Source: Eledone cirrhosa (lineage: Eukaryota). From it: 64,000 nucleotides of DNA. The position numbers were made by a program, and so were the translations under genes. The DNA is taken from NCBI GenBank assembly GCA_964016885.1, contig OZ024740.1, positions 279,620,001-279,684,000 on the forward strand. Direction: 5' to 3'. The notes below the pieces were generated by a model. That model saw only the letters and a program-made list of their open reading frames with translations, did no database searches and was not told where the DNA came from. Positions 32,101-61,500 of this stretch are shown here, piece after piece (the first letter of the stretch is position 1; every line of letters starts with the position of its first letter).

Positions 32101-32580
32101 ATCCATTTTTTATTTGGGGGATCAATTTTTTATTTGAGGGATCCATTTTTTATTTGGGGGATCCATTTTTTATTTGATGGATCTCCCAAATAAAAAATAG
32201 ATCACCCAAATAAAAAATGGATCCCCCAAATAAAAAATGGATCACCCAAATAAAAACTGGATCCCCCAAATAAAAAATGGATCCCCCCAAATAAAAAATG
32301 GATCCCCCAAATAAAAAATGGATCCCCCAAATAAAAAATGGATCCCCTAAATAAAAAATGGATCACCCAAATAAAAAATGGATCACCCAAATAAAAAATG
32401 GATCACCCAAATAAAAAATAGATCGCCCAAATAAAAAATGGATCCAAAAAATAAAAAATGGATCACCCAAATAAAAAATGGATCACCCCCCCAAAAAAAT
32501 CGATCCCCAAATAAAAAATGGATCACCCAAATAAAAAATGGATTACCCAAATAAAAAATGGATCCCCCAAATAAAAAATG
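29130..32580. repeat. Direct copy of ~18730-22170 at ~10.4-kb offset
   Basis: Constant offset of 10405 for ORF pairs 19689/30094, 19922/30327, 20082/30487, 20875/31280 and 21053/31458. Both carry the rare variant CCCACATAGAAACTGG. Confidence 0.85.
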
Positions 32581-38500: not shown

Positions 38501-41500
38501 AAAATGGATCCAAAAAATAAAAAATGGATCACCCAAATAAAAAATGGATCACCCCCCCAAAAAAATCGATCCCCAAATAAAAAATGGATCACCCAAATAA
38601 AAAATGGATTACCCAAATAAAAAATGGATCCCCCAAATAAAAAATGGATCACCCAAATAAAAAATGGATCCCCCAAATAAAAAATGGATCCCCCAAATAA
38701 AACATGGATCCTCCCCAATAAAATATGGATCACCCCCCCAAAAAATGGATCACCCAAATAAAAAATGGATCACCCAAATAAAAAATGGATCCCCCAAATA
38801 AAAAATGGATCACCCAAATAAAGAATGGATCACCCAAATAAAAAATGGACCCCCAAATAAAAAATGGATCACCCAAATAAAAAATGGATCACCCAAATAA
38901 AAAATGGATCCCCGAAATAAAAAATGGATCCGCCAAATAAAAAATGGATCCATTTTTTATTTGGGTGATCCATTTTTTATTTAGGGTGATCCGTTTTTAT
39001 TTGGGTGATCCATTTTTTATTTGGGTGATTCCTTTTTTATTTGGGTGATCCATTTTTTATTTGGGTGATCCATTTTTTATTTGAGTGATCCATTCTTTAT
39101 TTGAGGGATCCATTTTTTATTTGGGTGATCCATTTTTTATTTGGGGGATCCATTTTTTATTTGGGCGATCCATTTTTTATTTGGGTGATCCATTTTTTAT
39201 TTGGGTGATCCATTTTTTATTTGGGTGATCCATTTTTTATTTGGGGGATCCATTTTTTATTTGGGGGATCCATTTTTTATTTGGGTGATCCATTTTTTAT
39301 TTGGGGGATCCATTTTTTATTTGGGTGATCCATTTTTTATTTGGGTGATCCATTTTTTATTTGGGTGATCCATTTTTTATTTGAGGGATCCATTTTTTAT
39401 TTTTTGGATCCATTTTTTATTTGGGGGATCCATTTTTTATTTGGGTGATCCATTTTTTATTTGGGTGATCCATTCTTTATTTGGGGTATCCATTTTTTAT
39501 TTCGGGGTTCCATTTTTTATTTGGGGGATCCATCAAATAAAAAATGGATCACCCAAATAAAAAATGGATCATCCAAATAAAAACTGGATCCCCCAAATAA
39601 AAAATGGATCACCCAAATAAAAAATGGATAACCGAAATAGAAAATGGACCCCCAAATAAAAAATGGATCACCCAAATAAAAAATGGATCACCCAAATAAA
39701 AAATGGATCCCCAAATAAAAAATGGATCACCCAAATAAAAAATGGATCCCCCAAATACAAAATGGATCCCCCAAATAAAAAATGGATCCCCCAAATAAAA
39801 AAGGGAACCATTTTTTATTTGGGTGATCCATTTTTTATTTGGGTGATCAATTTTTTATTTGGGTGATTCATTTTTTATTTGGGTGATCCATTTTTAATTT
39901 TTGGGATCCATTTTTTATTTGGTGGATCCATTTTTTATTTGGGTGATCCATTTTTTATTTGGGTGATCCATTTTTTATTTGGGTGATCCATTTTTTATTT
40001 GGGTGATCCATTTTTTATTTGTTGGATCCCCCAAATAAAAAATGGAACCCCCAAATAAAAAATGGATCCCCCAAATAAAAAATGGATCACCCAAATAAAA
40101 AATGGATCCCCCCAAATAAAAAATGGATCACGCAAATAAAAAATGGATCCCCCAAATAAAAAATGGATCCCCCAAATAAAAAATGGATCCCCCAAATAAA
40201 AAATGAATCCCTGAAATAAAAAATGGATCCCCCAAATAAAAAAGGCATCCATTTTTTATTTGGGTGATCCATTTTTTATTTGGGGGATCCATTTTTTATT
40301 TGGGGGATCCATTTTTTATTTTGGGGATCCATTTTTTATTTGGGGGATCCATTTTTTATTTGCGTGATCCATTTTTTATTTGGGGGATCCATTTTTTATT
40401 TGGGTGATCCATTTTTTATTTGGGTGATCCATTTTTTATTTGGGGGTCCATTTTTTTATTTCGGTGATCCATTTTTTATTTGGGTGATCCATTTTTTATT
40501 TTTTGGATCCATTTTTTATTTGGGCGATCCATTTTTTATTTGGGTGATCCATTTTTTATTTGGGTGATCCATTTTTTATTTGGGTGATCCATTTTTTATT
40601 TGGGGGATCCATTTTTTATTTGGGTGATCCATTTTTTATTTGGGGGATCCATTTTTTATTTGGGGCTGCCATTTTTTATTTGGGGGATCCATCAAATAAA
40701 AAATGGATCACCCAAATAAAAACTGGATCCCCCAAATAAAAAATGGATCACCCAAATAAAAAATGGATAATCGAAATAAAAAATGGACCCCCAAATAAAA
40801 AATGGATCACTCAAATAAAAAATGGATCCCGCAAATAAAAAATGAATCCCTGAAATAAAAAATGGATCCCCCAAATAAAAAAGGGATCCATTTTTTATTT
40901 GGGTGATCCATTTTTTATTTGGGGGGATCCGTTTTTTATTTGGGCGATCCATTTTTTATTTGGGTGATCCATTTTTTATTTGGGGGATCCATTTTTTATT
41001 TGGGGGATCCATTTTTTATTTGGGGGATCCATTTTTTATTTGGGTGTTCCATTCTTTATTTGGGGGATCCAGTTTTTATTTGGGTGATCCATTTTTTGTT
41101 TGGGTGATCCATTTTTATTTGGGTGATCCATTTTTTATTTGGGGGATCCATTTTTTATTTGGGGGATCCATTTTTTATTTGGGGGATCCATTTTGTATTT
41201 TTTGGGTCCATTTTTTATTTGGGCGATCCATTTTTTATTTGGGTGATCCATTTTTTATTTGGGGGATCCATTTTTTATTTGGGGGATCCATTTTTTATTT
41301 TGGGGATCCATTTTTTATTTGGGGGATCCATTTTTTATTTGGGTGATTCATTTTTTATTTGGGGGATCAATTTTTTTACGGTGATCCATTTTGTATTTGG
41401 GGGATCCATTTTTTATTTGGGGGTTCCATTTTTTATTTGGGTGATCCATAAAAACAAAAAATGTATCACCCAAATAAAAAGTGGAACACCTAAATAAAAA

Positions 41501-43390
41501 ATGGATCCCCCCAAATAAAAAATGGATCACCCAGATAAAAAATGGATCCCTTTTTTATTTAGCGGATCCATTTTTTATTTCGGGGATCCATTCTTTATTT
41601 GGGGGATCCATTTTTTATTTGGGTGATCCATTTTTCATTTGGGTGATCCATTTTTTATTTGGGGGATCCATTTTTTATTTGGGTGATCCATTTTTTATTT
41701 GGGGGATCCATTTTTTATTTCGGTGATCCATTTTTTATTTGGGTGATCCATTTTTTATTTGGGGTTCCATTTTTTATTTGGGTGATCTATTTTTTATTTG
41801 GTGGATCCATTTTTTATTTGGGGGATCCATTTTTATTTGGGTGATCCATTTTTTATTTGGGTGATCCATTTTTTATTTGGGGGATCAATTTTTTATTTGG
41901 GTGATCCATTTTTTATTTGGGTGATCCATTTTTTATTTGGTGATCCATTTTTTATTTGGGGGATTCATTTTTTATTTGGGTGATCCATTTTTTATTTGGG
42001 TGATCCCTTTTTATTTGAGGTATCCATATTTAATTTGGGTGATCCATTTTTTATTTGGGTGATCCATTTTTTATTTGGGTGATCCATTTTTTATTTGGGT
42101 GATCCATTTTTTATTTGGGGGATCCATTTTTTATTTGGGTGATCCATTTTTTATTTGGGGGATCCATTTTTTATTTGGGGGATCCATTTTTTATTTGGTG
42201 GATCGATTTTTTATTTGGGGGATCCATTTTTTATTTGGGGGATCATATTTTTGGGGGGGATCCATTTTATATTTGGGTGATCCATTTTTTATTTAGGTGA
42301 TCCATTTTTTATTTGGGGGATCCATTTTTTATTTGGGTGATCCATTTTTTATTTGGGCGATCCATTTTTTATTTGGGTGATCCATTTTTTATTTGGGTGA
42401 TCCATTTTTTATTTGGGGGATCAATTTTTTATTTGGGTGATCCATTTTTTATTTGGGTGATCCATTCTTTATTTGGGTAATCCATTTTTTATTTGGGGGA
42501 TCCATTTTTTATTTGGGTGATCCATTTTTTATTTGGAGGATCCATTTTTTATTTGGGCGATCCATTTTTATATGGGGGATCCATTTTTTATTTGGTGGAT
42601 CCATTTTTTATTTAGGGGATCCATTTTTTATTTAGGGGATCCATTTTTTATTTTGGGGATCCATTTTATATTTGGGTGATCCATTTTTTATTTGGGTGAT
42701 CCATTTTTTATTTGGGGGATCCATTTTTTATTTGGGTGATCCATTTTTTATTTGGGGGATCAATTTTTTTTTCGGTGATCCATTTTTTATTTGGGGGATC
42801 CATTTTTTATTTGGGGGTTCCATTTTTTATTTGGGGGATCCATCAAACAAAAAATGGATCACCCAAATAAAAAGTGGATCACCTAAATAAAAAATGGATC
42901 CCCCAAATAAAAAATGTATCACCCAAATAAAAAATGGATCACCCAAACAAAAAATGTATCACCCAAATAAAAAATGGATCACCCAAATAAAAAATGGATC
43001 CACCAAATAAAAAATGGATCCCCCAAATAAAAAATAGATCACACAAATAAAAAATGGATCCCCCAAATAAAAAATGGATCACCCAAATAAAAAATGTATC
43101 ACCCAAATAAAAAATGGATAACCCAAATAAAAAATGGATCCCCCAAATAAAAAATAGATCACCCAAATAAAAATTGGATCACCCAAATAAAAAATGGATT
43201 CCCCAAATAAAAAATGGATCACCCAAATAAAAAATGGATCACCCAAATAAAAAATGGATCCCTTTTTTATTTGGGGGATCCATTTTTTATTTGGGTGATC
43301 AATTTTTTATTTGGGGGATCCATTTTTTATTTGGGGGATCCATATTATATTTGGGTGATCCATTTTTTATTTGGGTGATCCATTTTTTAT
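30950..43390. repeat. Higher-order repeat, two tandem copies of a ~6.1-6.4 kb unit (boundary ~37020)
   Basis: Offsets are 6066-6067 (31280/37347, 32202/38268) and then 6365-6366 (33914/40280, 34537/40903, 35710/42075, 36869/43234). Shared private variants include GGGGCTGCC, AAAGGCATCC and TTTACGGTG. Confidence 0.9.
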
Positions 43391-46300
43391 TTGGGCGATC
43401 CATTTTTTATTTGGGGGATACATTTTTTATTTGGGAGATCCATTTTTTATTTGGGTGATTCATTTTTTATTTGGGTGATCCATTTTTAATTTTTGGGATC
43501 CATTTTTTATTTGGTGGATCCATTTTTTATTTGGGTGATCCATTTTTTATTTGGGTGATCCATTTTTTATTTGGGTCATCCATTTTTTATTTGGGTGATC
43601 CATTTTTTATTTGGGTGATCCATTTTTTATTTGATGGATCCCCAAATATAAAATGGAACCCCCAAATAAAAAATGGATCCCCCAAACAAAAAATGGATCA
43701 CCCAAATAAAAAATGGATCCCCCAAATAAAAAATGGATCCCCCAAATAAAAAATGAATCCCTGAAATAAAAAATGGATCCCCCAAATAAAAAAGGGATCC
43801 ATTTTTTATTTGGGTGATCCATTTTTTATTTAGGGGGATCCGTTTTTTATTTGGGCGATCCATTTTTTATTTGGGTGATCCATTTTTTATTTGGGTGATC
43901 CATTTTTTATTTGGGGGATCCATTTTTTATTTGGGCGATCCATTTTTTATTTGGGTGATCCATTTTTTATTTGGGGGATCCATTTTTTATTGGGGGGATC
44001 CATTTTTTATTTGGGGGATCCATTTTTTATTTAGGGGATCCATTTTTTATTTGGGTGATCCATTTTTTATTTGGGGGATCCAGTTTTTATTTGGCTGATC
44101 CATTTTTTGTTTGGGTGATCCATTTTTATTTTTTGGATCCATTTTTTATTTGGGCGATCCATTTTTTATTTGGGTGATCCATTTTTTATTTGGGGGATCC
44201 ATTTTTTATTTGGGTGATCCATTTTTTATTTGGTGATCCATTTTGTATTTGGGGGATCCATTTTTTATTTGGGTGATCCATTTTTTATTTGGGGGATCCA
44301 TTTTTTATTTGGGTGATCCATTTTTTATTTGGTGATCCATTTTGTATTTGGGGGATCCATTTTTTATTTGGGTGATCCATTTTTTATTTGGGTGATCCAT
44401 TTTTTATTTGAGGGATCCATTTTTTATTTGGGGGATCCATTTTTTATTTGATGGATCTCCCAAATAAAAAATACATCACCCATATAAAAAATGGATCCCC
44501 CAAATAAAAAATGGATCACCCAAATAAAAAATGGATCCCCCAAATAAAAAATGGATCACCCAAATAAAAAGTGGATCACCCAAATAAAAAATGAATCACC
44601 CAAATATAAAATAGATCACCCAAATAAAAAATGGATCCCCCAAATAAAAAATGGATCCCTTTTTTATTTGGCGGATCCATTTTTTATTTGGGGGATCCAT
44701 TATCTATTTGAGTGATCCATTTTTTATTTGTGGGATCCATTTTTTATTTGGGTGATCCATTTTTTATTTGGGGGATCCATTTTTTATTTGGGTGATCCAT
44801 TTTTTATTTGGTGATCCATTTTTTATTTGGGGGATCCATTTTTTATTTGGGTGATCCATTTTTTATTTGGGTGATCCATTTTTTATTTGAGGGATCCATT
44901 TTTTATTTGGGGGATCCATTTTTTATTTGATGGATCTCCCAAATAAAAAATAGATCACCCAAATAAAAAATGGATCCCCCAAATAAAAAATGGATCACCC
45001 AAATAAAAACTGGATCCCCCAAATAAAAAATGGATCCCCCCAAATAAAAAATGGATCCCCCCAAATAAAAAATGGATCCCCTAAATAAAAAATGGATCAC
45101 CCAAATAAAAAATGGATCACCCAAATAAAAAATGGATCACCCAAATAAAAAATAGATCGCCCAAATAAAAAATGGATCCAAAAAATAAAAAATGGATCAC
45201 CCAAATAAAAAATGGATCACCCCCCAAAAAAATCGATCCCCAAATAAAAAATGGATCACCCAAATAAAAAATGGATCCCCCAAATAAAAAATGGATCACC
45301 CAAATAAAAAATGGATCCCCCAAATAAAAAATGGATACCCCAAATAAAAAATGGATCCCCCCCAATAAAAAATGGATCACCCCCCAAAAAAATGGATCAC
45401 CCAAATAAAAAATGGATCACCCAAATAAAAAATGGATCCCCCAAATAAAAAATGGATCACCCAAATAAAAAATGGATCACCCAAATAAAAAATGGACCCC
45501 CAAATAAAAAATGGATCACCCAAATAAAAAATGGATCACACAAATAAAAAATGGATCCCCGAAATAAAAAATGGATCCGCCAAATAAAAAATGGATCCAT
45601 TTTTTATTTGGGTGATCCATTTTTTATTTAGGGTGATCCGTTTTTATTTGGGTGATCCATTTTTTATTTGGGTGATTACTTTTTTATTTGGGTGATCCAT
45701 TTTTTATTTGGGTGATCCATTTTTTATTTGAGTGATCCATTCTTTATTTGAGGGATCCATTTTTTATTTGGGTGATCCATTTTTTATTTGGGGGATCCAT
45801 TTTTTATTTGGGCGATCCATTTTTTATTTGGGTGATCCATTTTTTATTTGGGTGATCCATTTTTTATTTGGGGAATCCATTTTTTATTTGGGGGATCCAT
45901 TTTTTATTTGGGTGATCCATTTTTTATTTGGGGGATCCATTTTTAATTTGGGTGATCCATTTTTTATTTGGGTGATCCATTTTTTATTTGGGTGATCCAT
46001 TTTTTATTTGAGGGATCCATTTTTTATTTTTTGGATCCATTTTTTATTTGGGGGATCCATTTTTTATTTGGGTGATCCATTTTTTATTTGGGTGATCCAT
46101 TCTTTATTTGGGGTATCCATTTTTTATTTCGGGGTTCCATTTTTTATTTGGGGGATCCATCAAATAAAAAATGGATCACCCAAATAAAAAATGGATCATC
46201 CAAATAAAAACTGGATCCCCCAAATAAAAAATGGATCACCCAAATAAAAAATGGATAACCGAAATAAAAAATGGACCCCCAAATAAAAAATGGATCACCC

Positions 46301-49300
46301 AAATAAAAAATGGATCACCCAAATAAAAAATGGATCCCCCAAATAAAAAATGGATCACCCAAATAAAAAATGGATCCCCCAAATACAAAATGGATCCCCC
46401 AAATAAAAAATGGATCCCCCAAATAAAAAAGGGAACCATTTTTTATTTGGGTGATCCATTTTTTATTTGGGTGATCAATTTTTTATTTGGGTGATTCATT
46501 TTTTATTTGGGTGATCCATTTTTAATTTTTGGGATCCATTTTTTATTTGGTGGATCCATTTTTTATTTGGGTGATCCATTTTTTATTTGGGTGATCCATT
46601 TTTTATTTGAGGGATCCATTTTTTATTTGGGGGATCCATTTTTTATTTGATGGATCTCCCAAATTAAAAATAGATCACCCAAATAAAAAATGGATCCCCC
46701 AAATAAAAAATGGATCACCCAAATAAAAACTGGATCCCCCAAATAAAAAATGGATCCCCCCAAATAAAAAATGGATCCCCCCAAATAAAAAATGGATCCC
46801 CTAAATAAAAAATGGATCACCCAAATAAAAAATGGATCACCCAAATAAAAAATGGATCACCCAAATAAAAAATAGATCGCCCAAATAAAAAATGGATCCA
46901 AAAAATAAAAAATGGATCGCCCAAATAAAAAATGGATCCCCCAAATAAAAAATGGATCACCCAAATAAAAAATGGATCACCCAAATAAAAAATGGATCGC
47001 CCAAATAAAAAACGGATCCCCCTAAATAAAAAATGGATCACCCAAATAAAAAATGGATCCCTTTTTTATTTGGGGGATCCATTTTTTATTTCAGGGATTC
47101 ATTTTTTATTTGGGGGATCCATTTTTTATTTGGTGGATCCATTTTTTATTTGGGTGATCCATTTTTTGTTTGGGGGATCCATTTTTTATTTGGGGGTTCC
47201 ATTTTATATTTGGGGATCCATCAAATAAAAAATGGATCACCCAAATAAAAAATGGATCACCCAAATAAAAAATGGATCCCCCAAATAAAAAATGGATCCC
47301 CCAAATAAAAAATGAATCCCTGAAATAAAAAATGGATCCCCCAAATAAAAAATGAATCCCTGAAATAAAAAATGGATCCCCCAAATAAAAAATGGATCCC
47401 CCAAATAAAAAATGGATCACCCAAATAAAAAATGGATCCCTTTTTTATTTGGGGGATCCATTTTTTATTTCAGGGATTCATTTTTTATTTGGGGGATCCA
47501 TTTTTTATTTCAGGGATTCATTTTTTATTTGGGGGATCCATTTTTTATTTGGGGGATCCATTTTTTATTTGGGTGATCCATTTTTTATTTGGGTGATCCA
47601 TTTTTTATTTGATGGATCCCCAAATATAAAATGGAACCCCCAAATAAAAAATGGATCCCCCAAACAAAAAATGGATCACCCAAATAAAAAATGGATCCCC
47701 CAAATAAAAAATGGATCCCCCAAATAAAAAATGAATCCCTGAAATAAAAAATGGATCCCCCAAATAAAAAAGGGATCCATTTTTTATTTGGGTGATCCAT
47801 TTTTTATTTAGGGGGATCCGTTTTTTATTTGGGCGATCCATTTTTTATTTGGGTGATCCATTTTTTATTTGGGTGATCCATTTTTTATTTGGGGGATCCA
47901 TTTTTTATTTGGGCGATCCATTTTTTATTTGGGTGATCCATTTTTTATTTGGGGGATCCATTTTTTATTGGGGGGATCCATTTTTTATTTGGGGGATCCA
48001 TTTTTTATTTAGGGGATCCATTTTTTATTTGGGTGATCCATTTTTTATTTGGGGGATCCAGTTTTTATTTGGCTGATCCATTTTTTGTTTGGGTGATCCA
48101 TTTTTATTTTTTGGATCCATTTTTTATTTGGGCGATCCATTTTTTATTTGGGTGATCCATTTTTTATTTGGGGGATCCATTTTTTATTTGGGTGATCCAT
48201 TTTTTATTTGGTGATCCATTTTGTATTTGGGGGATCCATTTTTTATTTGGGTGATCCATTTTTTATTTGGGGGATCCATTTTTTATTTGGGTGATCCATT
48301 TTTTATTTGGTGATCCATTTTGTATTTGGGGGATCCATTTTTTATTTGGGTGATCCATTTTTTATTTGGGTGATCCATTTTTTATTTGAGGGATCCATTT
48401 TTTATTTGGGGGATCCATTTTTTATTTGATGGATCTCCCAAATAAAAAATACATCACCCAAATAAAAAATGGATCCCCCAAATAAAAAATGGATCACCCA
48501 AATAAAAAATGGATCCCCCAAATAAAAAATGGATCACCCAAATAAAAAGTGGATCACCCAAATAAAAAATGAATCACCCAAATATAAAATAGATCACCCA
48601 AATAAAAAATGGATCCCCCAAATAAAAAATGGATCCCTTTTTTATTTGGCGGATCCATTTTTTATTTGGGGGATCCATTATCTATTTGAGTGATCCATTT
48701 TTTATTTGTGGGATCCATTTTTTATTTGGGTGATCCATTTTTTATTTGGGGGATCCATTTTTTATTTGGGTGATCCATTTTTTATTTGGTGATCCATTTT
48801 TTATTTGGGGGATCCATTTTTTATTTGGGTGATCCATTTTTTATTTGGGTGATCCATTTTTTATTTGAGGGATCCATTTTTTATTTGGGGGATCCATTTT
48901 TTATTTGATGGATCTCCCAAATAAAAAATAGATCACCCAAATAAAAAATGGATCCCCCAAATAAAAAATGGATCACCCAAATAAAAACTGGATCCCCCAA
49001 ATAAAAAATGGATCCCCCCAAATAAAAAATGGATCCCCCCAAATAAAAAATGGATCCCCTAAATAAAAAATGGATCACCCAAATAAAAAATGGATCACCC
49101 AAATAAAAAATGGATCACCCAAATAAAAAATAGATCGCCCAAATAAAAAATGGATCCAAAAAATAAAAAATGGATCACCCAAATAAAAAATGGATCACCC
49201 CCCCAAAAAATCGATCCCCAAATAAAAAATGGATCACCCAAATAATAAATGGATCCCCCAAATAAAAAATGGATCACCCAAATAAAAAATGGATCCCCCA

Positions 49301-49395
49301 AATAAAAAATGGATCCCCCAAATAAAAAATGGATCCCCCCCAATAAAAAATGGATCACCCCCCAAAAAAATGGATCACCCAAATAAAAAATGGAT
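40898..49395 (+). repeat. Left arm (~8.5 kb) of giant inverted duplication
   Basis: ORFs mirror those in 50012-58513 on the opposite strand with a near-constant coordinate sum of 99409-99430, e.g. 42672..42890+/56539..56757-, 43607..43822-/55607..55822+, 48881..49102-/50307..50528+. Confidence 0.93.
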
Positions 49396-50011
49396 CACCC
49401 AAATAAAAAATGGATCCCCCAAATAAAAAATGGATCACCCAAATAAAAAATGGATCACCCAAATAAAAAATGGACCCCCAAATAAAAAATGGATCACCCA
49501 AATAAAAAATGGATCACACAAATAAAAAATGGATCCCCGAAATAAAAAATGGATCCGCCAAATAAAAAATGGATCCATTTTTTATTTGGGTGATCCATTT
49601 TTTATTTAGGGTGATCCGTTTTTATTTGGGTGATCCATTTTTTATTTGGGTGATTCCTTTTTTATTTGGGTGATCCATTTTTTATTTGGGTGATCCATTT
49701 TTTATTTGAGTGATCCATTCTTTATTTGAGGGATCCATTTTTTATTTGGGTGATCCATTTTTTATTTGGGGGATCCATTTTTTATTTGGGCGATCCATTT
49801 TTTATTTGGGTGATCCATTTTTTATTTGGGTGATCCATTTTTTATTTGGGGGATCCATTTTTTATTTGGGGGATCCATTTTTTATTTGGGTGATCCATTT
49901 TTTATTTGGGGGATCCATTTTTAATTTGGGTGATCCATTTTTTATTTGGTTGATCCATTTTTTATTTGGGTGATCCATTTTTTATTTGAGGGATCCATTT
50001 TTTATTTTTTG
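43570..50011. repeat. Direct duplication with 3978-bp offset (~43570-46030 repeated at ~47550-50011)
   Basis: ORF pairs 43607/47585, 43814/47792, 44903/48881, 45117/49095 and 45732/49710 all differ by 3978. Confidence 0.9.
46903..47930. repeat. Near-perfect ~1-kb palindrome (arms ~490 bp, ~48-bp spacer, centre ~47416)
   Basis: Mirror ORF pairs sum to 94833: 46992..47228+/47605..47841-, 47033..47248+/47585..47800-, 47106-/47727+. The doubled TGAATCCCTG variant is mirrored as doubled CAGGGATTCA. Confidence 0.9.
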
Positions 50012-53000
50012 GATCCATTTTTTATTTGGGTGATCCATTTATTTGGGGGGTGATCCATTTTTTATTGGGGGGGGATCCATTTTTTATTTGGGGGATCCAT
50101 TTTTTATTTGGGGGATCCATTTTTTATTTGGGTGATCCATTTTTTATTTGGGGGATCCATTTTTTATTTGGGTGATCCATTTTTTATTTGGGGATCGATT
50201 TTTTTGGGGGGTGATCCATTTTTTATTTGGGTGATCCATTTTTTATTTTTTGGATCCATTTTTTATTTGGGCGATCTATTTTTTATTTGGGTGATCCATT
50301 TTTTATTTGGGTGATCCATTTTTTATTTGGGTGATCCATTTTTTATTTAGGGGATCCATCTTTTATTTGGGGGGATCCATTTTTTATTTGGGGGGATCCA
50401 TTTTTTATTTGGGGGATCCAGTTTTTATTTGGGTGATCCATTTTTTATTTGGGGGATCCATTTTTTATTTGGGTGATCTATTTTTTATTTGGGAGATCCA
50501 TCAAATAAAAAATGGATCCCCCAAATAAAAAATGGATCCCTCAAATAAAAAATGGATCACCCAAATAAAAAATGGATCACCCAAATAAAAAATGGATCCC
50601 CCAAATAAAAAATGGATAACCAAATAAAAAATGGATCACCCAAATAAAAAATGGATCCCCCAAATAAAAAATGGATCACCCAAATAAAAAATGGATCCCA
50701 CAAATAAAAAATGGATCACTCAAATAGATAATGGATCCCCCAAATAAAAAATGGATCCGCCAAATAAAAAAGGGATCCATTTTTTATTTGGGGGATCCAT
50801 TTTTTATTTGGGTGATCTATTTTATATTTGGGTGATTCATTTTTTATTTGGGTGATCCACTTTTTATTTGGGTGATCCATTTTTTATTTGGGGGATCCAT
50901 TTTTTATTTGGGTGATCCATTTTTTATTTGGGGGATCCATTTTTTATTTGGGTGATGTATTTTTTATTTGGGAGATCCATCAAATAAAAAATGGATCCCC
51001 CAAATAAAAAATGGATCCCTCAAATAAAAAATGGATCACCCAAATAAAAAATGGATCACCCAAATAAAAAATGGATCCCCCAAATACAAAATGGATCACC
51101 AAATAAAAAATGGATCACCCAAATAAAAAATGGATCCCCCAAATAAAAAATGGATCACCCAAATAAAAAATGGATCCCCCAAATACAAAATGGATCACCA
51201 AATAAAAAATGGATCACCCAAATAAAAAATGGATCCCCCAAATAAAAAATGGATCACCCAAATAAAAAATGGATCGCCCAAATAAAAAATGGATCCAAAA
51301 AATAAAAATGGATCACCCAAACAAAAAATGGATCAGCCAAATAAAAACTGGATCCCCCAAATAAAAAATGGATCACCCAAATAAAAAATGGATCCCCTAA
51401 ATAAAAAATGGATCCCCCAAATAAAAAATGGATCCCCCCAATAAAAAATGGATCCCCCAAATAAAAAATGGATCACCCAAATAAAAAATGGATCGCCCAA
51501 ATAAAAAATGGATCCCCCAAATAAAAAATGGATCACCCAAATAAAAAATGGATCACCCAAATAAAAAATGGATCGCCCAAATAAAAAACGGATCCCCCTA
51601 AATAAAAAATGGATCACCCAAATAAAAAATGGATCCCTTTTTTATTTGGGGGATCCATTTTTTATTTCAGGGATTCATTTTTTATTTGGGGGATCCATTT
51701 TTTATTTGGGGGATCCATTTTTTATTTGGGTGATCCATTTTTTGTTTGGGGGATCCATTTTTTATTTGGGGGTTCCATTTTATATTTGGGGATCCATCAA
51801 ATAAAAAATGGATCACCCAAATAAAAAATGGATCACCCAAATAAAAAATGGATCCCCCAAATAAAAAATGGATCCCCCAAATAAAAAATGAATCCCTGAA
51901 ATAAAAAATGGATCCCCCAAATAAAAAATGAATCCCTGAAATAAAAAATGGATCCCCCAAATAAAAAAGGGATCCATTTTTTATTTGGGTGATCCATTTT
52001 TTATTTGGGGGATCCATTTTTTATTTGGGGGATCCATTTTTTATTTCAGGGATTCATTTTTTATTTGGGGGATCCATTTTTTATTTCAGGGATTCATTTT
52101 TTATTTGGGGGATCCATTTTTTATTTGGGGGATCCATTTTTTATTTGGGTGATCCATTTTTTATTTGGGTGATCCATTTTTTATTTGATGGATCCCCAAA
52201 TATAAAATGGAACCCCCAAATAAAAAATGGATCCCCCAAACAAAAAATGGATCACCCAAATAAAAAATGGATCCACCAAATAAAAAATGGATCCCCCAAA
52301 TAAAAAATGAATCCCTGAAATAAAAAATGGATCCCCCAAATAAAAAAGGGATCCATTTTTTATTTGGGTGATCCATTTTTTATTTAGGGGGATCCGTTTT
52401 TTATTTGGGCGATCCATTTTTTATTTGGGTGATCCATTTTTTATTTGGGTGATCCATTTTTTATTTGGGGGATCCATTTTTTATTTGGGCGATCCATTTT
52501 TTATTTTTTGGATCCATTTTTTATTTGGGCGATCTATTTTTTATTTGGGTGATCCATTTTTTATTTGGGTGATCCATTTTTTATTTGGGTGATCCATTTT
52601 TTATTTAGGGGATCCATTTTTTATTTGGGGGGATCCATTTTTTATTTGGGGGGATCCATTTTTTATTTGGGGGATCCAGTTTTTATTTGGGTGATCCATT
52701 TTTTATTTGGGGGATCCATTTTTTATTTGGGTGATCTATTTTTAATTTGGGAGATCCATCAAATAAAAAATGGATCCCCCAAATAAAAAATGGATCCCTC
52801 AAATAAAAAATGGATCACCCAAATAAAAAATGGATCACCCAAATAAAAAATGGATCACCCAAATAAAAAATGGATCCACCAAATAAAAAATGGATCCCAA
52901 AAATTAAAAATGGATCACCCAAATAAAAAATGAATCACCCAAATAAAAAATTGATCACCCAAATAAAAAATGGATCACCCAAATAAAAAATGGTTCCCTT

Positions 53001-56000
53001 TTTTATTTGGGGGATCCATTTTTTATTTGGGGGATCCATTTTGTATTTGGGGGATCCATTTTTTATTTGGGTGATCCATTTTTTATTTGGGGGATCCATT
53101 TTTTATTTGGGTGATCCATTTTTTATTTGGGTGATCCATTTTTTATTTGGGGGTCCATTTTTTATTTCGGTTATCCATTTTTTATTTGGGTGATCCATTT
53201 TTTATTTGGGGGATCCAGTTTTTATTTGGATGATCCATTTTTTATTTGGGTGATCCATTTTTTATTTGATGGATCCCCCAAATAAAAAATGGAACCCCGA
53301 AATAAAAAATGGATACCCCAAATAAAGAATGGATCACCCAAATAAAAAATGGATCACCCAAATAAAAAATGGATCCCCCAAATAAAAAATGGATCCAAAA
53401 AATAAAAAATGGATCCCTCAAATAAAAAATGGATCACCCAAATAAAAAATGGATCACCCAAATAAAAAATGGATCACCCAAATTAAAAATGGATCCCCCA
53501 AATAAAAAATGGATCACCCAAATAAAAAATGGATCCCCCAAATAAAAAATGGATCCCCCAAATAAAAAATGGATCACCCAAATAAAAAATGGATCACCCA
53601 AATAAAAAATGGATCGCCCAAATAAAAAATGGATCCCCCAAATAAAAAATGGATCACCCAAATAAAAAATGGATCCCTCAAATAAAGAATGGATCACTCA
53701 AATAAAAAATGGATCACCCAAATAAAAAATGGATCACCCAAATAAAAAAGGAATCACCCAAATAAAAAATGGATCACCCAAATAAAAACGGATCACCCTA
53801 AATAAAAAATGGATCACCCAAATAAAAAATGGATCCATTTTTTATTTGGCGGATCCATTTTTTATTTCGGGGATCCATTTTTTATTTGTGTGATCCATTT
53901 TTTATTTGGGTGATCCATTTTTTATTTGGGGGTCCATTTTTTATTTGGGTGATCCCGTTTTTATTTGGGTGATCCATTGTTTATTTGGGGGATCCATTTT
54001 TTATTTGGGTGATCCATTTTTTATTTGGGTGATCCATTTTTTGGGGGGGTGATCCATTTTTTATTGGGGGGGATCCATTTTTTATTTGGGGTATCCATTT
54101 TTTATTTGGGGGATCCATTTTTTATTTGGGTGATCCATTTTTTATTTGGGGGATCCATTTTTTATTTGGGTGATCCATTTTTTATTTGGGGATCGATTTT
54201 TTGGGGGGGTGATCCATTTTTTATTTGGGTGATCCATTTTTTATTTTTTGGATCCATTTTTTATTTGGGCGATCTATTTTTTATTTGGGTGATCCATTTT
54301 TTATTTGGGTGATCCATTTTTTATTTGGGTGATCCATTTTTTATTTAGGGGATCCATTTTTTATTTGGGGGGATCCATTTTTTATTTGGGGGGATCCATT
54401 TTTTATTTGGGGGATCCAGTTTTTATTTGGGTGATCCATTTTTTATTTGGGGGATCCATTTTTTATTTGGGTGATCTATTTTTTATTTGGGAGATCCATC
54501 AAATAAAAAATGGATCCCCCAAATAAAAAATGGATCCCTCAAATAAAAAATGGATCACCCAAATAAAAAATGGATCACCCAAATAAAAAATGGATCCCCC
54601 AAATAAAAAATGTATCACCAAATAAAAAATGGATCACCCAAATAAAAAATGGATCCCCCAAATAAAAAATGGATCACCCAAATAAAAAATGGATCCCACA
54701 AATAAAAAATGGATCACTCAAATAGATAATGGATCCCCCAAATAAAAAATGGATCCGCCAAATAAAAAAAGGATCCATTTTTTATTTGGGGGATCCATTT
54801 TTTATTTGGGTGATCTATTTAATATTTGGGTGATTCATTTTTTATTTGGGTGATCCACTTTTTATTTGGGTGATCCATTTTTTATTTGGGGGATCCATTT
54901 TTTATTTGGGTGATCCATTTTTTATTTGGGGGATCCATTTTTTATATGGGTGATGTATTTTTTATTTGGGAGATCCATCAAATAAAAAATGGATCCCCCA
55001 AATAAAAAATGGATCCCTCAAATAAAAAATGGATCACCCAAATAAAAAATGGATCACCCAAATAAAAAATGGATCCCCCAAATACAAAATGGATCACCAA
55101 ATAAAAAATGGATCACCCAAATAAAAAATGGATCCCCCAAATAAAAAATGGATCACCCAAATAAAAAATGGATCCCCCAAATACAAAATGGATCACCAAA
55201 TAAAAAATGGATCACCCAAATAAAAAATGGATCCCCCAAATAAAAAATGGATCACCCAAATAAAAAATGGATCGCCCAAATAAAAAATGGATCCAAAAAA
55301 TAAAAATGGATCACCCAAACAAAAAATGGATCAGCCAAATAAAAACTGGATCCCCCAAATAAAAAATGGATCACCCAAATAAAAAATGGATCCCCTAAAT
55401 AAAAAATGGATCCCCCAAATAAAAAATGGATCCCCCCAATAAAAAATGGATCCCCCAAATAAAAAATGGATCACCCAAATAAAAAATGGATCGCCCAAAT
55501 AAAAAATGGATCCCCCAAATAAAAAATGGATCACCCAAATAAAAAATGGATCACCCAAATAAAAAATGGATCGCCCAAATAAAAAACGGATCCCCCTAAA
55601 TAAAAAATGGATCACCCAAATAAAAAATGGATCCCTTTTTTATTTGGGGGATCCATTTTTTATTTCAGGGATTCATTTTTTATTTGGGGGATCCATTTTT
55701 TATTTGGGGGATCCATTTTTTATTTGGGTGATCCATTTTTTGTTTGGGGGATCCATTTTTTATTTGGGGGTTCCATTTTATATTTGGGGATCCATCAAAT
55801 AAAAAATGGATCACCCAAATAAAAAATGGATCACCCAAATAAAAAATGGATGACCCAAATAAAAAATGGATCACCCAAATAAAAAATGGATCACCCAAAT
55901 AAAAAATGGATCCACCAAATAAAAAATGGATCCCAAAAATTAAAAATGGATCACCCAAATAAAAAATGAATCACCCAAATAAAAAATGGATCTCCCAAAT

Positions 56001-58513
56001 AAAAAATGTATCCCCCAAATAAAAAATGGATCGCCCAAATAAAAAATGGATCACCCAAATAAAAAATGGATCACCCAAATATAATATGGATCCCCCAAAT
56101 AAAAAATGGATCCCCCAAATAAAAAATTGATCACCCAAATAAAAAATGGATCCCCCAAATAAAAAAGGGATCCATTTTTTATTTGGGTGATCCATTTTTT
56201 ATTTGGGTGATCCATTTTTTATTTGGGGAATCCATTTTTTATTTGGGTGATCCAATTTTTATTTGGGTGATCTATTTTTTATTTGGGGGATCCATTTTTT
56301 ATTTGGGTTATCCATTTTTTATTTGGGTGATCCATTTTTTATTTGGGTGATCCATTTTTTATTTGGGGGATCCATTTTTTATTTGTGTGATCTATTTTTT
56401 ATTTGGGGGATCCATTTTTTATTTGGTGGATCCATTTTTTATTTGGGTGATCCATTTTTTATTTGGGTGATACATTTTTTGTTTGGGTGATCCATTTTTT
56501 ATTTGGGTGATACATTTTTTATTTGGGGGATCCATTTTTTATTTAGGTGATCCACTTTTTATTTGGGTGATCCATTTTTTGTTTGATGGATCCCCCAAAT
56601 AAAAAATGGAACCCCCAAATAAAAAATGGATCCCCCAAATAAAAAATGGATCACCGAAAAAAAAATTGATCCCCCAAATAAAAAATGGATCACCCAAATA
56701 AAAAATGGATCCCCCAAATAAAAAATGGATCACCCAAATAAAAAATGGATCACCCAAATATAAAATGGATCCCCAAAATAAAAAATGGATCCCCTAAATA
56801 AAAAATGGATCCCCTAAATAAAAAATGGATCCACCAAATAAAAAATGGATCCCCCATATAAAAATGGATCGCCCAAATAAAAAATGGATCCTCCAAATAA
56901 AAAATGGATCACCCAAATAAAAAATGGATCCCCCAAATAAAAAATGGATTACCCAAATAAAAAATGGATCACCCAAATAAAAAATGGATCACCCAAATAA
57001 AAAATTGATCCCCCAAATAAAAAATGGATCACCCAAATAAAAAATGGATCACCCAAATAAAAAATGGATCGCCCAAATAAAAAATGGATCACCCAAATAA
57101 AAAATGGATCCCCCAAATAAAAAATGGATCACCTAAATAAAAAATGGATCACCCAAATATAAAATGGATCCCCCCCAAAAATATGATCCCCCAAATAAAA
57201 AATGGATCCCCCAAATAAAAAATCGATCCACCAAATAAAAAATGGATCCCCCAAATAAAAAATGGATCCCCCAAATAAAAAATGGATCACCCAAATAAAA
57301 AATGAATCCCCCAAATAAAAAATGGATCACCCAAATAAAAAATGGATCACCCAAATAAAAAATGGATCACCCAAATAAAAAATGGATCACCCAAATTAAA
57401 TATGGATACCTCAAATAAAAAGGGATCACCCAAATAAAAAATGGATCACCCAAATAAAAAATGAATCCCCCAAATAAAAAATGGATCACCAAATAAAAAA
57501 TGGATCACCCAAATAAAAAATGGATCACCCAAATAAAAAATTGATCCCCCAAATAAAAAATGGATCACCCAAATAAAAAATGGATCACCCAAATAAAAAA
57601 TGGATCCCCCAAATAAAAAATGGATCCACCAAATAAAAAATAGATCACCCAAATAAAAAATGGAACCCCAAATAAAAAATGGATCACCCAAATAAAAAAT
57701 GGATCACCGAAATAAAAAATGGATCCCCCAAATAAAAAATGGATCACCCAAATAAAAAATGGATCCCCCAAATAAAAAATGGATCACCCAAATGAAAAAT
57801 GGATCACCCAAATAAAAAATGGATCCCCCAAATAAAGAATGGATCCCCGAAATAAAAAATGGATCCGCTAAATAAAAAAGGGATCCATTTTTTATCTGGG
57901 TGATCCATTTTTTATTTGGGGGGATCCATTTTTTATTTAGGTGTTCCACTTTTTATTTGGGTGATACATTTTTTGTTTTTATGGATCACCCAAATAAAAA
58001 ATGGAACCCCCAAATAAAAAATGGATCCCCCAAATACAAAATGGATCACCGTAAAAAAAATTGATCCCCCAAATAGAAAATGAATCACCCAAATAAAAAA
58101 TGGATCCCCCAAATAAAAAATGGATCCCCAAAATAAAAAATGGATCCCCCAAATAAAAAATGGATCCCCCAAATAAAAAATGGATCACCCAAATAAAAAA
58201 TGGATCGCCCAAATAAAAAATGGACCCCAAAAATACAAAATGGATCCCCCAAATAAAAAATGGATCCCCCAAATAAAAAATGGATCACCCAAATAAAAAT
58301 GGATCACCCAAACAAAAAATGGATCACCCAAATAAAAACTGGATCCCCCAAATAAAGAATGGAACACCCAAATAAAAAATGGATCCCCCAAATAAAAAAT
58401 GGATCCCCCAAATAAAAAATGGATCCCCCAAATAAAAAATGGATCACCCAAATAAAAAATGGATCGCCCAAATAAAAAACGGATCCCCCCAAATAAAAAA
58501 TGGATCACCCAAA
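50012..58513 (-). repeat. Right arm (~8.5 kb) of giant inverted duplication
   Basis: Reverse complement of 40898-49395 including private variants: GGGTCATCC ~43563 / GGATGACCC ~55848, CCCATATAAAA ~44479 / TTTTATATGGG ~54940, GATCCATAAAAACAAA ~41443 / TTTGTTTTTATGGATC ~57972. Confidence 0.93.
51479..52506. repeat. Second copy of the ~1-kb palindrome (centre ~51992) inside the right giant arm
   Basis: Mirror ORF pairs sum to 103985: 51568..51804+/52181..52417- and 51609..51824+/52161..52376-. Confidence 0.9.
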
Positions 58514-61500
58514 CAAAAACTGGATCACCCAAATAAAAAATGGATCACCCAAATAAAAAATGGATCCCCCAAATAAAAAATGGATCACCCAAATAAAAAA
58601 TGGATCCCCCAAATAAAAAATGGATCTGCCAAATAAAAAATGGATCACACAAATAAAAAATGGATCCCCCAAATAAAAATGGATCCGCCAAATAAAAAAT
58701 GGATCACACAAATAAAAAATGGATCCCCCCCAAAAAATGGATCACCCAACTAAAAAATGGATCACCTAAATAAAAAATGGATCCCCCAAATAAAAAATGG
58801 ATCACCCAAACAAAAACTGGATCACCCAAATAAAAAATGGATCACCCAAATAAAAAATGGATCCCCCAAATAAAAAATGGATCACCCAAATAAAAAATGG
58901 ATCACCCAAATGTAAAATGGATCCCCCAAATAAAAAATGGAACCCCCAAATAAAAAATGGATCCCCCAAATAAAAAATGGATCCAACAAATAAAAAATGG
59001 ATCACCCAAATAAAAAATGGATCACCCAAATAAAAAATGGATCACCCAAATAAAAAATGGATCCCCCAAATAAAAAATGGATCACCCAAATAAAAAATGG
59101 ATACCCCAAATAAAAAATGGATCCACCAAATAAAAAATGGATCACCCAAATAAAAAATGGATCACCCAAATGTAAAATGGATCCCCCAAATAAAAATAGG
59201 GTCCCCCAAATAAAAATAGATCCCCCAAATAAAAAATGGATCCAACAAATAAAAAATGGATCACCAAAATAAAAAATGGGTCACCAAAATAAAAAATGGA
59301 TCTCCCAAATAAAAAATGGATCACCCAAATAAAAAATGGATCACCCAAATAAAAAATGGATCCCCCAAATAAAAAATGGATCACCCAAATCAAAAATGGA
59401 TCACCCAAATAAAAAATGGATCACCCAAATAAAAAATGGATCACCCAAATAAAAAATGTATCACCCAAATAAAAAATGGATCCGCCAAATAAAAAATGGA
59501 TCACCCAAATAAAAAATGGTTCCCCCAAATAAAAAATGGATCTGCCAAATAAAAAATGGATCACAAATAAAAAATGGATCCCCCAAATAAAAATGGATCC
59601 GCCAAATAAAAAATGGATCACACAAATAAAAAATGGATCCCCCAAATAAAAATGGATCACCCAACTAAAAAATGGATCACCTAAATAAAAAATGGATCCC
59701 CAAATAAAAAATGGATCCTCCAAATGTAAAATGGATCCGCCAAATAAAAAATGGAACCCCCAAATAAAAAATGGATCCCCCAAATAAAAAATGGATCCAA
59801 CAAATAAAAAATGGATCACCCAAATGTAAAATGGATCCCCCAAATAAAAAATGGAACCCCCAAATAAAAAATGGATCCCACAAATAAAAAATGGATCCAA
59901 CAAATAAAAAATGGATCACCCAAATAAAAAATGGATCACCCAAATAAAAAATGGATCACCCAAATAAAAAATGGATCCCCCAAATAAAGAATGATCACCC
60001 AAATAAAAAATGGATACCCCAAATAAAAAATGGATCCACCAAATAAAAAATGGATCACCCAAATAAAAAATGGATTACCCAAATGTAAAATGGATCCCCC
60101 AAATAAAAATAGGGTCCCCCAAATAAAAATGGATCCCGCAAATAAAAAATGGATCCAACAAATAAAAAATGAATCACCCAAATAAAAAATGGATCACCCA
60201 AATCAAAAATGGATCTCCCAAATAAAAAATGGATCCCCCAAATAAAAAATGGATCACCCAAATAAAAAATGGATCCCCCAAATAAAAAATGGATCACCCA
60301 AATCAAAAATGGATCACCCAAATAAAAAATGGATCCCCCAAATAAAAAATGGATCACCCAAATAAAAAATGGATCACCCAAATAAAAAATGGATCACCCA
60401 AATAAAAAATTGGATCACCCAAATAAAAAATGGATCCCCCAAATAAAAAATGGATCACACAAATAAAATATGGATCACCCAAATAAAAAATGGATCACCC
60501 AAATAAAAAATGGATCCCCCAAATAAAAAATGGATCACCCAAATAAAAAATGGATCCCCCAAATAAAAAATGGATCACCCAAATAAAAAATGGATCGCCC
60601 AAATAAAAAACGGATCCCCCCAAATAAAAAATGGATCACCCAAACAAAAACTGGATCACCCAAATAAAAAATGGATCGCCCAAATAAAAAACGGATCCCC
60701 CCAAATAAAAAATGGATCACCCAAACAAAAACTGGATCTGCCAAATAAAAAATGGATCACACAAATAAAAAATGGATCCCCCAAATAAAAATGGATCCGC
60801 CAAATAAAAAATGGATCACACAAATAAAAAATGGATCCCCCCCCAAAAAATGGATCACCCAACTAAAAAATGGATCACCTAAATAAAAAATGGATCCCCC
60901 AAATAAAAAATGGATCACCCAAACAAAAACTGGATCACCCAAATAAAAAATGGATCACCCAAATAAAAAATGGATCCCCCAAATAAAAAATGGATCACCC
61001 AAATAAAAAATGGATCACCCAAATGTAAAATGGATCCCCCAAATAAAAAATGGAACCCCCAAATAAAAAATGGATCCCCCAAATAAAAAATGGATCCAAC
61101 AAATAAAAAATGGATCACCCAAATAAAAAATGGATCACCCAAATAAAAAATGGATCACCCAAATAAAAAATGGATCCCCCAAATAAAAAATGGATCACCC
61201 AAATAAAAAATGGATACCCCAAATAAAAAATGAATCCACCAAATAAAAAATGGATCACCCAAATAAAAAATGGATCACCCAAATGTAAAATGGATCCCCC
61301 AAATAAAAATAGGGTCCCCCAAATAAAAATAGATCCCCCAAATAAAAAATGGATCCAACAAATAAAAAATGGATCACCAAAATAAAAAATGGGTCACCAA
61401 AATAAAAAATGGATCTCCCAAATAAAAAATGGATCACCCAAATAAAAAATGGATCACCCAAATAAAAAATGGATCCCCCAAATAAAAAATGGATCACCCA

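Follow-up and report, generated by a model that had tools for sequence, protein, structure and literature searches.

The 64,000-nt stretch analysed here (the window, positions 1..64000) consists throughout of a 20-bp satellite arranged in 134 blocks of alternating orientation (F and R). The monomer reads CATTTTTTATTTGGG[T/G]GATC and contains a GATC/GGATCC dyad. The window belongs to a 224-kb array (382 blocks of ~0.6 kb on average, 381 orientation switches), which sits among several satellites on a 443-Mb contig (C1). Two sister arrays of the same 20-mer lie on this contig at ~295 and ~296 Mb; in both, the 20-mer borders other minisatellites in a constant R-insert-F order, the inserts being tandem repeats themselves. 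The 20-mer is not pan-centromeric, since about 95% of the genome matches to three motifs (348/364, 100/107, and 400/415) fall within these three arrays of a single contig. At most about 5% lie elsewhere, and C1 before 279.47 Mb yielded no dispersed motif matches. Table 1 lists the features of the window and of its surroundings.

Table 1. Coordinates of the satellite array, the nested palindromes, and the associated duplications (window positions unless preceded by C1).
Feature	Position	Orientation	Remark
Satellite array	C1:279,476,348-279,700,123	both orientations	224 kb; includes the window
Giant palindrome	40898-58513		17,616 bp
Giant left arm	40898-49396	+	putative template arm
Giant spacer	49397-50011		615 bp; one perfect R-to-F junction
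Giant right arm	50012-58513	-	putative derived arm
Giant-tip switch	within 50012-50030		19-bp overlap
Rejoining of giant right arm with distal domain	58486-58513		28-bp overlap
Later ~2.1-kb direct duplication	58407-62690	+	takes in last ~107 bp of giant right arm; recopied at 60538-60677
1-kb palindrome, left arm	46903-47392	-	putative inverted, derived copy; private G>T at 47134
1-kb palindrome, unpaired spacer	47393-47440		48 bp; inherited R-to-F junction
1-kb palindrome, right arm	47441-47930	+	from 47556, start of second ~4-kb-unit copy
Mirror copy of 1-kb palindrome	51479-52506	-	exact reverse complement; within giant right arm
Inner mini-palindrome	47403-47586 vs 47666-47809		first part includes 40-bp slippage duplication; 79-bp spacer; borderline score
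Segment S, copy 1 of 3 in giant left arm	43578-43952	+	
Segment S, copy 2	46903-47277	inverted	
Segment S, copy 3	47556-47930	+	
H1, copy of direct duplication	43578-46052	+	offset 3,978 to H2
H2, copy of direct duplication	47556-50030	+	offset 3,978 to H1
Direct copy of 44832-45198	46552-46918	+	runs into inverted arm; private change at 46665

A first-pass annotation had described 46903-47930 as a near-perfect palindrome with one mismatch, whose arms contain older inversion junctions. This description holds, with the addition of the unpaired spacer: the 490-bp arms pair on the mirror sum 94833, the sole mismatch being T47134 vs C47699. Two strand-switch junctions, one in each direction (R-to-F and F-to-R), lie in each arm, and a third lies in the spacer. 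As a single strand, the sequence folds into one long hairpin at -594 kcal/mol. A local mirror scan gives the palindrome 93 bits, whereas the best of 6 shuffles yields 22.9. Reverse-complemented, the left arm differs from its own right arm at 1 position, from six older relatives at 14-20, and from everything else in the 224-kb array at 68 or more; the match is not due to chance. Copies 1 and 3 of segment S are identical and the inverted copy has one mismatch, while 43953-46052 is present twice at the same offset of 3,978. A templated 367-bp piece (46552-46918) overlaps its neighbours by 58 bp at its left end and 16 bp at its right end. Between 46552 and 47586, at least four template switches can be placed, all in short overlaps. 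On this layout, S would have undergone an inverted triplication tied to the 4-kb direct duplication, with the 1-kb palindrome as its tip. The inner mini-palindrome may belong to the same event.

The 17.6-kb palindrome within which this structure had been described as nested was recovered as well, with the 1-kb palindrome and its copy (0 differences over 1028 positions) in opposite arms. The giant arms, 8.5 kb each, are about 99.7% alike (20 substitutions and 5 indels). Past the right arm comes a distal domain unrelated to it, and a third copy is absent; the giant palindrome would thus be an inverted duplication rather than a triplication. Beyond this arm, the array and about 163 Mb of contig go on, so the distal loss that characterizes a breakage-fusion-bridge fold-back is not seen here. 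The longest perfect arms found in a scan of the window for perfect palindromes are 16 bp, every one at a junction; the window therefore contains no long zero-spacer palindrome. The nested tips lie in the part of the array densest in switches (2.5 per kb).

The proposal that the 1-kb palindrome predates the giant one stands, as both copies show its private mismatch in mirrored form. Ranking palindromes by arm divergence, as had been suggested, has no power here (0.20% vs 0.22%, with overlapping intervals), and the order of events was therefore taken from shared variants. The reverse order, a giant palindrome formed first and the 1-kb structure carried across by conversion, needs a 4-kb insertion-type tract; it was rejected since every 3,978-bp window to be carried has at least 7 arm differences. 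A 2.2-kb stretch around the 1-kb palindrome has zero arm differences (largest-gap P=0.017), which may point to a degree of conversion or assembly smoothing. One site is crossed among the four 4-kb-unit copies (45226/49204, with H1=H2' and H2=H1'); it falls where a C-run meets an A-run and is not expected from simple copying.

Unequal crossover and segmental duplication generate higher-order repeats, and on their own produce neither inverted copies nor flip junctions. Direct duplications, of 1.6-14 kb, predominate here too: 81-90% of bases lie within a direct 200-mer repeat, exact direct repeats reach 7.3 kb, and exact matches of at least 200 bp number 1,864 direct vs 67 inverted. Masking the two inverted arms reduces inverted cover from 11.3% to 1.3%. 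The claim that the array grows by iterated mirror duplication thus survives in part. Mirror duplication does recur, with 8 local events in about 750 kb over the three arrays (at a scan reach of 55 monomers), but it is a minor growth mode, head-to-tail duplication being behind most of the array's repeated structure. An independent 5.8-kb palindrome (C1:296,491,713-296,497,524), 16.8 Mb away, has 2.8-kb arms, a 79-bp spacer, and the same layout; old junctions are reused, and the in-register overlaps are 50 and 10 bp. The spacers of the 8 events measure 48, 79, 79, 126, about 415-835, 435, 615, and 665 bp. Old junctions lie inside all three nested spacers and inside those of 4 of the 5 other events. 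The inverted copy lies at most about 1 kb from its template in 8/8 events, and at 48-79 bp in three, although this closeness is partly built in, as the scan reached 55 monomers only. Each long palindrome is recent and occurs once, and the higher-order repeats do not carry any of them. The first 200 kb of the 296-Mb array contained no inverted match and its extension contained one, so that absence from part of an array means little. A 200-bp 'palindrome' in the 295-Mb array proved to be an N gap and was dropped.

The five-level, self-similar hierarchy proposed for this locus is not supported. Its lower levels (GATC/GGATCC, 32-bp junction palindromes, and block stems) are real, but they follow from the existence of opposite-facing blocks rather than from separate mirror duplications: adjacent opposite-facing block pairs reach 15 bits or more in 7 of 381 cases vs 4 in a reversed-order control, with the same median. 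A paired test was slightly positive (p=0.004) but was discounted because the medians do not differ and the block pairs, being mutual copies, are not independent; block-level stems were accordingly rejected as mirror events. The F-to-R switches, which are asymmetric, use one shared breakpoint in 525 of 557 cases over the three arrays (179/191 in the 224-kb array), and are therefore likely inherited copies rather than fresh fold-backs. The motif expected of a perfect F-to-R fold-back is matched nowhere in the genome (0 matches), whereas the inherited type has 364. Around R blocks, the commonest pairing is the reciprocal one (81/190), and the exact predicted reciprocal junction occurs three times, at the left edge of the 224-kb array. 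The R-to-F junction is one base off the reciprocal prediction and also one base off a perfect fold-back, so that a single seed is preferred for economy only. Two further small junction pairs, if not more, are of separate origin. These counts suggest that about one junction pair can be the ancestor of hundreds of switches. New mirror copies would escape junction counting, since they appear to reuse old junctions.

We propose, with a probability of roughly two in three, that the nested palindromes arose by two successive inverted duplications through ODIRA/FoSTeS-type in-register template switching between opposite-facing satellite blocks. In the basic move, synthesis would jump in register from a monomer block to the opposite strand of a nearby, opposite-facing block. 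A parse of the donors gives the overlaps at the switches: for the 1-kb outer end 16 bp, for the mini-palindrome tip 31 bp, for the giant tip 19 bp, and for the giant outer end 28 bp. In both palindromes, the switches are in register, at overlaps of 16-31 bp, and create no new junction. The history would begin with one ancient inversion aligned on the GGATCC dyad, giving a reciprocal junction pair that head-to-tail duplication then spread to hundreds. An inverted copy of ~144 bp with 40-bp slippage (47403-47586) would have been followed by a U-turn with a 48-bp tip, producing both the 4-kb direct duplication and the triplicated S with its inverted middle copy; the two steps were possibly a single multi-switch event. 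The change at 47134 would come next, then a U-turn with a 615-bp tip, in which 8.5 kb were copied backwards, the distal domain rejoined, and the intervening DNA lost. Finally, the 2.1-kb direct duplication would have recopied the giant outer junction. Most likely, the palindromes are a neutral by-product of replication or repair, for which function is not needed. A more far-reaching version is that one seed inversion makes the satellite its own switching substrate, each palindrome provoking the next beside it in a self-feeding recursion. We hold this only tentatively, and doubt it on balance. Its trace would be the three nested tips (79-, 48-, and 615-bp spacers), which lie within 3 kb in the switch-densest part; the nesting is one locus among 8 events, too few to decide, and its rough chance of about 8.5/215 = 4% is post hoc. 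If true, such a mode would leave no new junctions, and the conserved inversion sites of macro-dyads would be explained without function.

Break repair or ectopic recombination (SDSA/BIR or a double exchange), with an opposite-facing block on the sister or homologue as donor and no fork U-turn, would also suit the giant palindrome, which has a long spacer and whose inverted duplication was accompanied by a deletion. Fixed differences at 44483 and 45337 separate H1 from H2, and the rearranged block is missing from H1, consistent with a contribution from a second chromatid; some older inverted copies are also remote from their donors (window -138,283 and -31,181). However, the 8 local events all lie within about 1 kb of the template, a closeness partly built into the scan, and three tips below 80 bp are not what random donors would be likely to give; we consider such repair unlikely. 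From sequence alone, template switching at the fork and break repair off an inverted donor are indistinguishable. Weighing against the preferred reading, the giant palindrome has no third forward copy, and 5/8 spacers (126, about 415-835, 435, 615, and 665 bp) exceed the ODIRA range. A more trivial explanation is that the giant palindrome, and hence the second 1-kb copy, is an assembly or library artefact, either a fold-back chimera or a haplotype misjoin. Three arm differences do lie at homopolymer boundaries, and public contig sets, maybe from the same source sample, share no more than 0.41 of the sampled words of 46500-50600 (0.28-0.41 in one study), a figure given no weight as evidence here. 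An artefact is nevertheless improbable given the 20 arm substitutions, for 19 of which the rarer allele was counted (left 5, right 11, tied 3), and which have a spectrum (6 transitions, 14 transversions) and a level like those between direct duplicates (23:54, 0.29%). In addition, the length of the exact direct repeats suggests low consensus error, the tip overlap is merely 19 bp, the outer junction is recopied 2.1 kb downstream in copies differing at 7 sites, and the array contains no N.

Could the palindromes and conserved inversion sites instead be selected structures, such as hairpins or cruciforms, that organise centromeric or heterochromatic chromatin, as has been suggested for Tribolium macro-dyads? 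The stability of the 1-kb fold is compatible with this, as are junction sequences common to arrays 16-17 Mb apart, a pattern also described in the available text on Tribolium (PMC13081366, PMC12581902). Copying from one ancestor also gives shared junctions, however, and the long palindromes are recent, solitary, and absent from the higher-order repeats; one 200-kb stretch of the same satellite is free of them, and the three motifs are concentrated on one contig. Selection therefore seems very improbable as their source. We give equally little credence to relics of a Foldback-type transposon with inverted ends made of the 20-mer. The accessible part of one report presents a Foldback element as the source of a satellite (PMC4079207), and the fixed R-insert-F order in the sister arrays would suit such an element, but no dispersed copies were seen among the genome matches (at most about 5% of which lie outside the three arrays), the F-to-R junction is asymmetric instead of having two matching ends that enclose a target duplication, the inserts consist of tandem repeats, and the variant-exact arms would be left unexplained.

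In-register template switching thus remains the preferred reading, and the array offers a base-level mutation record bearing on a wider question, as conserved inversion sites in satellites have been taken as a sign of function. It demonstrates neither a new molecular machine nor a function; it provides a neutral null model and a cheap test, by variant-level mirror scoring and spacer lengths, for finished satellite assemblies. Among the papers listed by a search of titles and abstract starts, with subscription papers and supplements mostly outside its reach, none described nested variant-exact palindromes in a satellite, and four satellite motifs had no literature match among mostly open papers. 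This does not show that such a structure is unpublished.

The closest known systems are described here from the available parts of their reports. In yeast, ODIRA junctions prefer spacers of 40-80 bp (PMC10766183), a range that includes the spacers of 3 of the 8 events (48, 79, and 79 bp), the other five, among them the giant's 615 bp, being longer. The forward-inverted-forward layout of the ODIRA inverted triplication at SUL1 (PMC10766183, PMC10766186) is shared by the 1-kb locus only. As in ODIRA and in small inverted triplications (PMC13334657, bioRxiv 10.1101/2025.01.14.632981), the palindromic tip has an unpaired spacer, and interrupted inverted repeats were already present where the tips sit; the accessible ODIRA-type accounts also describe how such products can erode to inverted duplications with deletion. 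The overlaps are 10-50 bp of satellite monomers here vs 2-14 bp in yeast, and the products, known from assembled sequence, appear inherited, further mutated, and nested, unlike those of yeast. Whereas both ODIRA junctions would be palindromic, S copy 1 and its inverted copy lie 2,950 bp apart, a gap that probably reflects later erosion or unequal exchange. Human DUP-TRP/INV-DUP rearrangements, which the available text attributes to iterative template switches at inverted repeats (PMC11293582), likewise have a triplicated segment with an inverted middle copy inside a duplication. Here, the scale is 375 bp inside 4 kb, with the extra 367-bp templated piece and no genes, and the overlaps are 16-58 bp instead of identical repeats of 2.2-5.5 kb. 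The two junctions of the human type, one in kilobase-long inverted repeats, contrast with the four or more short-overlap switches counted above. These likenesses suggest that the replication-type inverted triplication of yeast and human disease loci acts in satellite DNA too. Duplications and inversions are also reported, as far as the accessible text goes, at Cuscuta CUS-TR24 loci (PMC8091179). The macro-dyads of Tribolium (PMC13081366, PMC12581902) also show frequent switches, few types of conserved inversion site common to arrays, and intermingling with other satellites. As described in the available sections, they occur on most or all chromosomes, mostly with two subarrays of several kb in each array, in contrast to blocks of ~0.6 kb in one region here. 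These sections propose a functional reading and were found to contain no variant-level test of inherited junctions against mirror copies; in the present array, it is variant-level analysis that parts inherited junctions from true mirror copies.

The first-pass annotation had placed a near-perfect 1-kb palindrome, with a mirror copy, inside a giant palindrome of 17.6 kb, and both copies are present as described, with arms that differ at one site. Apart from its partner, the inverted 1-kb arm is matched most closely by six older relatives, with 14-20 mismatches, and unrelated places have at least 68; a chance origin of these arms is excluded. The locus was parsed by longest donors (Table). A 375-bp segment, S (43578-43952), occurs there as a forward, then an inverted, then a forward copy, and the locus is thus an inverted triplication within a 4-kb direct duplication. 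In the giant palindrome, which lacks a third copy, the second 4-kb copy extends to 50030 and would have switched, in a 19-bp overlap, to the opposite strand of an R block 615 bp behind (F and R being the two orientations of the 20-bp monomer). About 8.5 kb would then have been copied backwards before the distal domain was joined in a 28-bp overlap. The last ~107 bp of the giant arm and the outer junction recur 2.1 kb downstream, the 2.1-kb copies differing at 7 sites, and the two-monomer motif of this junction is confined, in its R orientation, to positions 58470, 60601, and 60682. Direct duplication thus likely acted before as well as after the giant event. The distal domain (58514-64000 and the sequence beyond, to the right array edge) has its own variants, a 374-monomer unbroken R block, and very small F blocks whose limits are perfect R-to-F junctions; in the types of junction present, it is similar to the 296.3-296.5-Mb array.

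Features of the array and donor parse of the 1-kb palindrome (window coordinates, or contig coordinates where prefixed C1)
Feature	Position	Detail
Full array of the 20-bp satellite	C1:279,476,348 to ~279,700,123	224 kb, gap-free
19-bp satellite	left border of array, C1:279,476,348	abuts without spacer
196-bp satellite	right border of array, C1:279,700,123	direct join via shared GATC
Sister arrays of the same 20-mer	C1 ~295.24-295.37 Mb and ~296.15-296.55+ Mb	
Giant palindrome	40898-58513	8.5-kb arms, 20 substitutions and 5 indels, 615-bp spacer
1-kb palindrome	arms 46903-47392 and 47441-47930	single difference (47134/47699), 48-bp spacer
Mirror copy	51479-52506	exact reverse complement of 46903-47930
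Native sequence	up to 46609	donor parse
Copy of 44832-45198	after native sequence	direct jump, 58-bp overlap
Left arm of 1-kb palindrome	after the 44832-45198 copy	opposite-strand switch, 16-bp overlap
Spacer, then inverted copy	47403-47586	neighbouring R block and its junction, includes 40-bp slip
Forward copy of 43578 onward	after 47403-47586	offset 3,978, 31-bp overlap

That the 1-kb palindrome predates the giant one, as had been proposed, is borne out by the 47134 mismatch, which is mirrored in both 1-kb copies. The 2.2-kb stretch holding this mismatch has zero arm differences (P=0.017), which leaves room for local conversion; that conversion moved the 4-kb insertion in its entirety is unsupported, any such window containing at least 7 differences. 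Ranking by arm divergence, the suggested route to the order of events, did not discriminate between them (0.20% vs 0.22%). An assembly artefact would be another way to obtain the giant palindrome. However, private alleles are present on both giant arms, the transition/transversion ratio and level of their differences equal those of direct duplicates (6:14 vs 23:54), the tip overlap is just 19 bp, and the outer junction has been recopied. A single crossed site at a homopolymer boundary counsels caution: the 4-kb unit is present four times, and at 45226, 49204, 50205, and 54203 these copies carry crossed alleles at a C-run/A-run boundary, which may be due to consensus error, recurrent slippage, or conversion. 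Differences between direct duplicate pairs are transversion-rich array-wide (54/77). From the assembled sequence, the palindromes appear to be real, and the two events correctly located and ordered.

The proposed recursion over five levels is true for the 1-kb and giant levels, and a third is possible; GGATCC, the 30-32-bp junction palindromes, and the block stems are not separate events. Each monomer includes GGATCC, and every junction of an R block with an F block at this site creates a palindrome of 30-32 bp. Encoding monomers as variant symbols, the check that had been suggested, we compared adjacent opposite blocks (blocks being runs of one orientation) with a reversed-order control of the same blocks. 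The medians were equal (3.26 bits), and 7/381 pairs reached at least 15 bits vs 4 in the control, so that block stems in general are not mirror copies; the seven are the giant tip, the two 1-kb tips with the inner stem of each, and two pairs from a single older event. Three of the five levels thus follow from the presence of opposite-facing blocks. A breakpoint region is common to the 1-kb tip and its inner stem, which may both derive from a single multi-switch event, hence two nested levels are certain. A local mirror scan detected six segments in this array, counted as four events because the 1-kb palindrome and the inner stem each appear twice, three in the 296-Mb array, and one in the 295-Mb array. 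Shuffled controls gave no hits in 17/18 cases; the remaining shuffle had a single hit of 22.9 bits, which makes the inner stem, at 22.2 bits, a borderline case. About four older inverted copies were detected between distant blocks. An older, partly decayed mirror copy lies at C1:279,571,965-279,573,730, where F-to-R junction orientation flips at the domain level; at ~C1:296,293,100, the array shifts from R-dominated to F-dominated with no matching long palindrome.

Inverted duplication is not confined to this locus. At C1:296,491,713-296,497,524 (5.8 kb), a 79-bp spacer separates a template from its 2.8-kb inverted copy, with 0 substitutions and one ~120-bp indel between the arms. Its tip and outer end reuse old junctions (overlaps of 50, 7, and 10 bp), the local mirror scan found no palindrome nested inside it, and it is independent of the 1-kb/giant locus. 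Growth by mirror duplication, as had been suggested, is upheld as a repeated process, but a minor one: the 1-kb and giant events contributed ~9 kb out of 224 kb, and direct matches dominate. Exact matches of at least 200 bp number 1,864 direct vs 67 inverted in the 224-kb array; for the sister arrays, the counts are 8,123 vs 112 and 589 vs 7. Direct 200-mer repeats make up 83% of the array and inverted ones 11.3%, or 1.3% without the two derived arms. The locus clearly documents what was likely inverted template switching, more than once, within a satellite.

The strand switches themselves appear, on sequence grounds, to be inherited. Across the three arrays, 525/557 F-to-R switches are nearer one breakpoint (F to GGATCCAT, R from CAAAT) than a perfect fold-back; the remainder comprise 2 nearer the perfect form, 1 tie, 17 in other registers, and 12 spanning >120 bp. 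The perfect F-to-R fold-back motif had 0 genome matches vs 364 for the inherited type, although a search without matches does not prove that the motif is absent. The switches could have been seeded by a single inversion that broke the monomer after positions 3 and 13, in register with its GGATCC dyad. The R-to-F partner predicted by this model is one base off the common R-to-F junction, its exact form occurs three times, at the left array edge, and the reciprocal pairing is the most frequent around R blocks (81/190). Because the common junction is also just one base off a perfect fold-back, we only infer a single seed. No fewer than two other small junction pairs are separate from it, with 12 + 9 copies in this array and 3 + 3 in the 296-Mb array. 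The lineage with 12 + 9 copies, the second in this array, lies within C1:279,479,626-279,567,111 and consists of a short inverted segment that folds back on the T-run/A-run axis.

The satellite fills the entire window (G000:C1:279,620,001-279,684,000) as 134 blocks alternating F/R, and the full array, on a 443-Mb contig of a 3.0-Gb genome, has 11,101 monomer cores and 381 strand switches. The sequence analysed over the three arrays (~750 kb) contains 348/364, 100/107, and 400/415 of the genome matches of three motifs. The left-flanking 19-bp satellite is ~50% GC and in a single orientation in the edge stretch, with similar GC for at least 56 kb upstream. The motif joining the 20-bp and 196-bp satellites occurs once genome-wide, and the 196-bp array, which also contains a longer variant unit, persists at 280.05 Mb. 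Minisatellites of ~21 bp and ~13 bp alternate with the 20-mer at C1:295.24-295.37 and at 296.15-296.21 Mb, always in the order R-insert-F and with the same sequences at the transitions. These regions resemble direct copies of one another; each is bordered by a 200-N gap, and their scaffolding may be uncertain. A diverged relative, a T-rich ~20-bp repeat in a single orientation, lies at C1:296,600,001-296,610,000, the GATC dyad being absent from the 200 bases seen.

Among known systems, the palindromes behave like ODIRA and iterative template-switch inverted triplication, as portrayed in PMC10766183, PMC10766186, PMC11293582, PMC13334657, and bioRxiv 10.1101/2025.01.14.632981, which include erosion to inverted duplication with deletion. 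Pre-existing interrupted inverted repeats are used here as in yeast ODIRA, which prefers a spacing of 40-80 bp (PMC10766183, PMC10766186). We do not class the Eledone palindromes as ODIRA, because just 3/8 spacers fall within that range and the giant palindrome is an inverted duplication rather than a triplication. At the array level, the likeness is to the Tribolium macro-dyads with conserved inversion sites, which PMC13081366 and PMC12581902 present as possibly functional or as an outcome of the mode of repeat spreading; in the Eledone array, copying alone suffices for conserved inversion sites. The cichlid centromere layout differs, being built, according to PMC13652916, on inverted non-satellite elements. 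Comparable dot plots may exist in the supplements of the cited papers.
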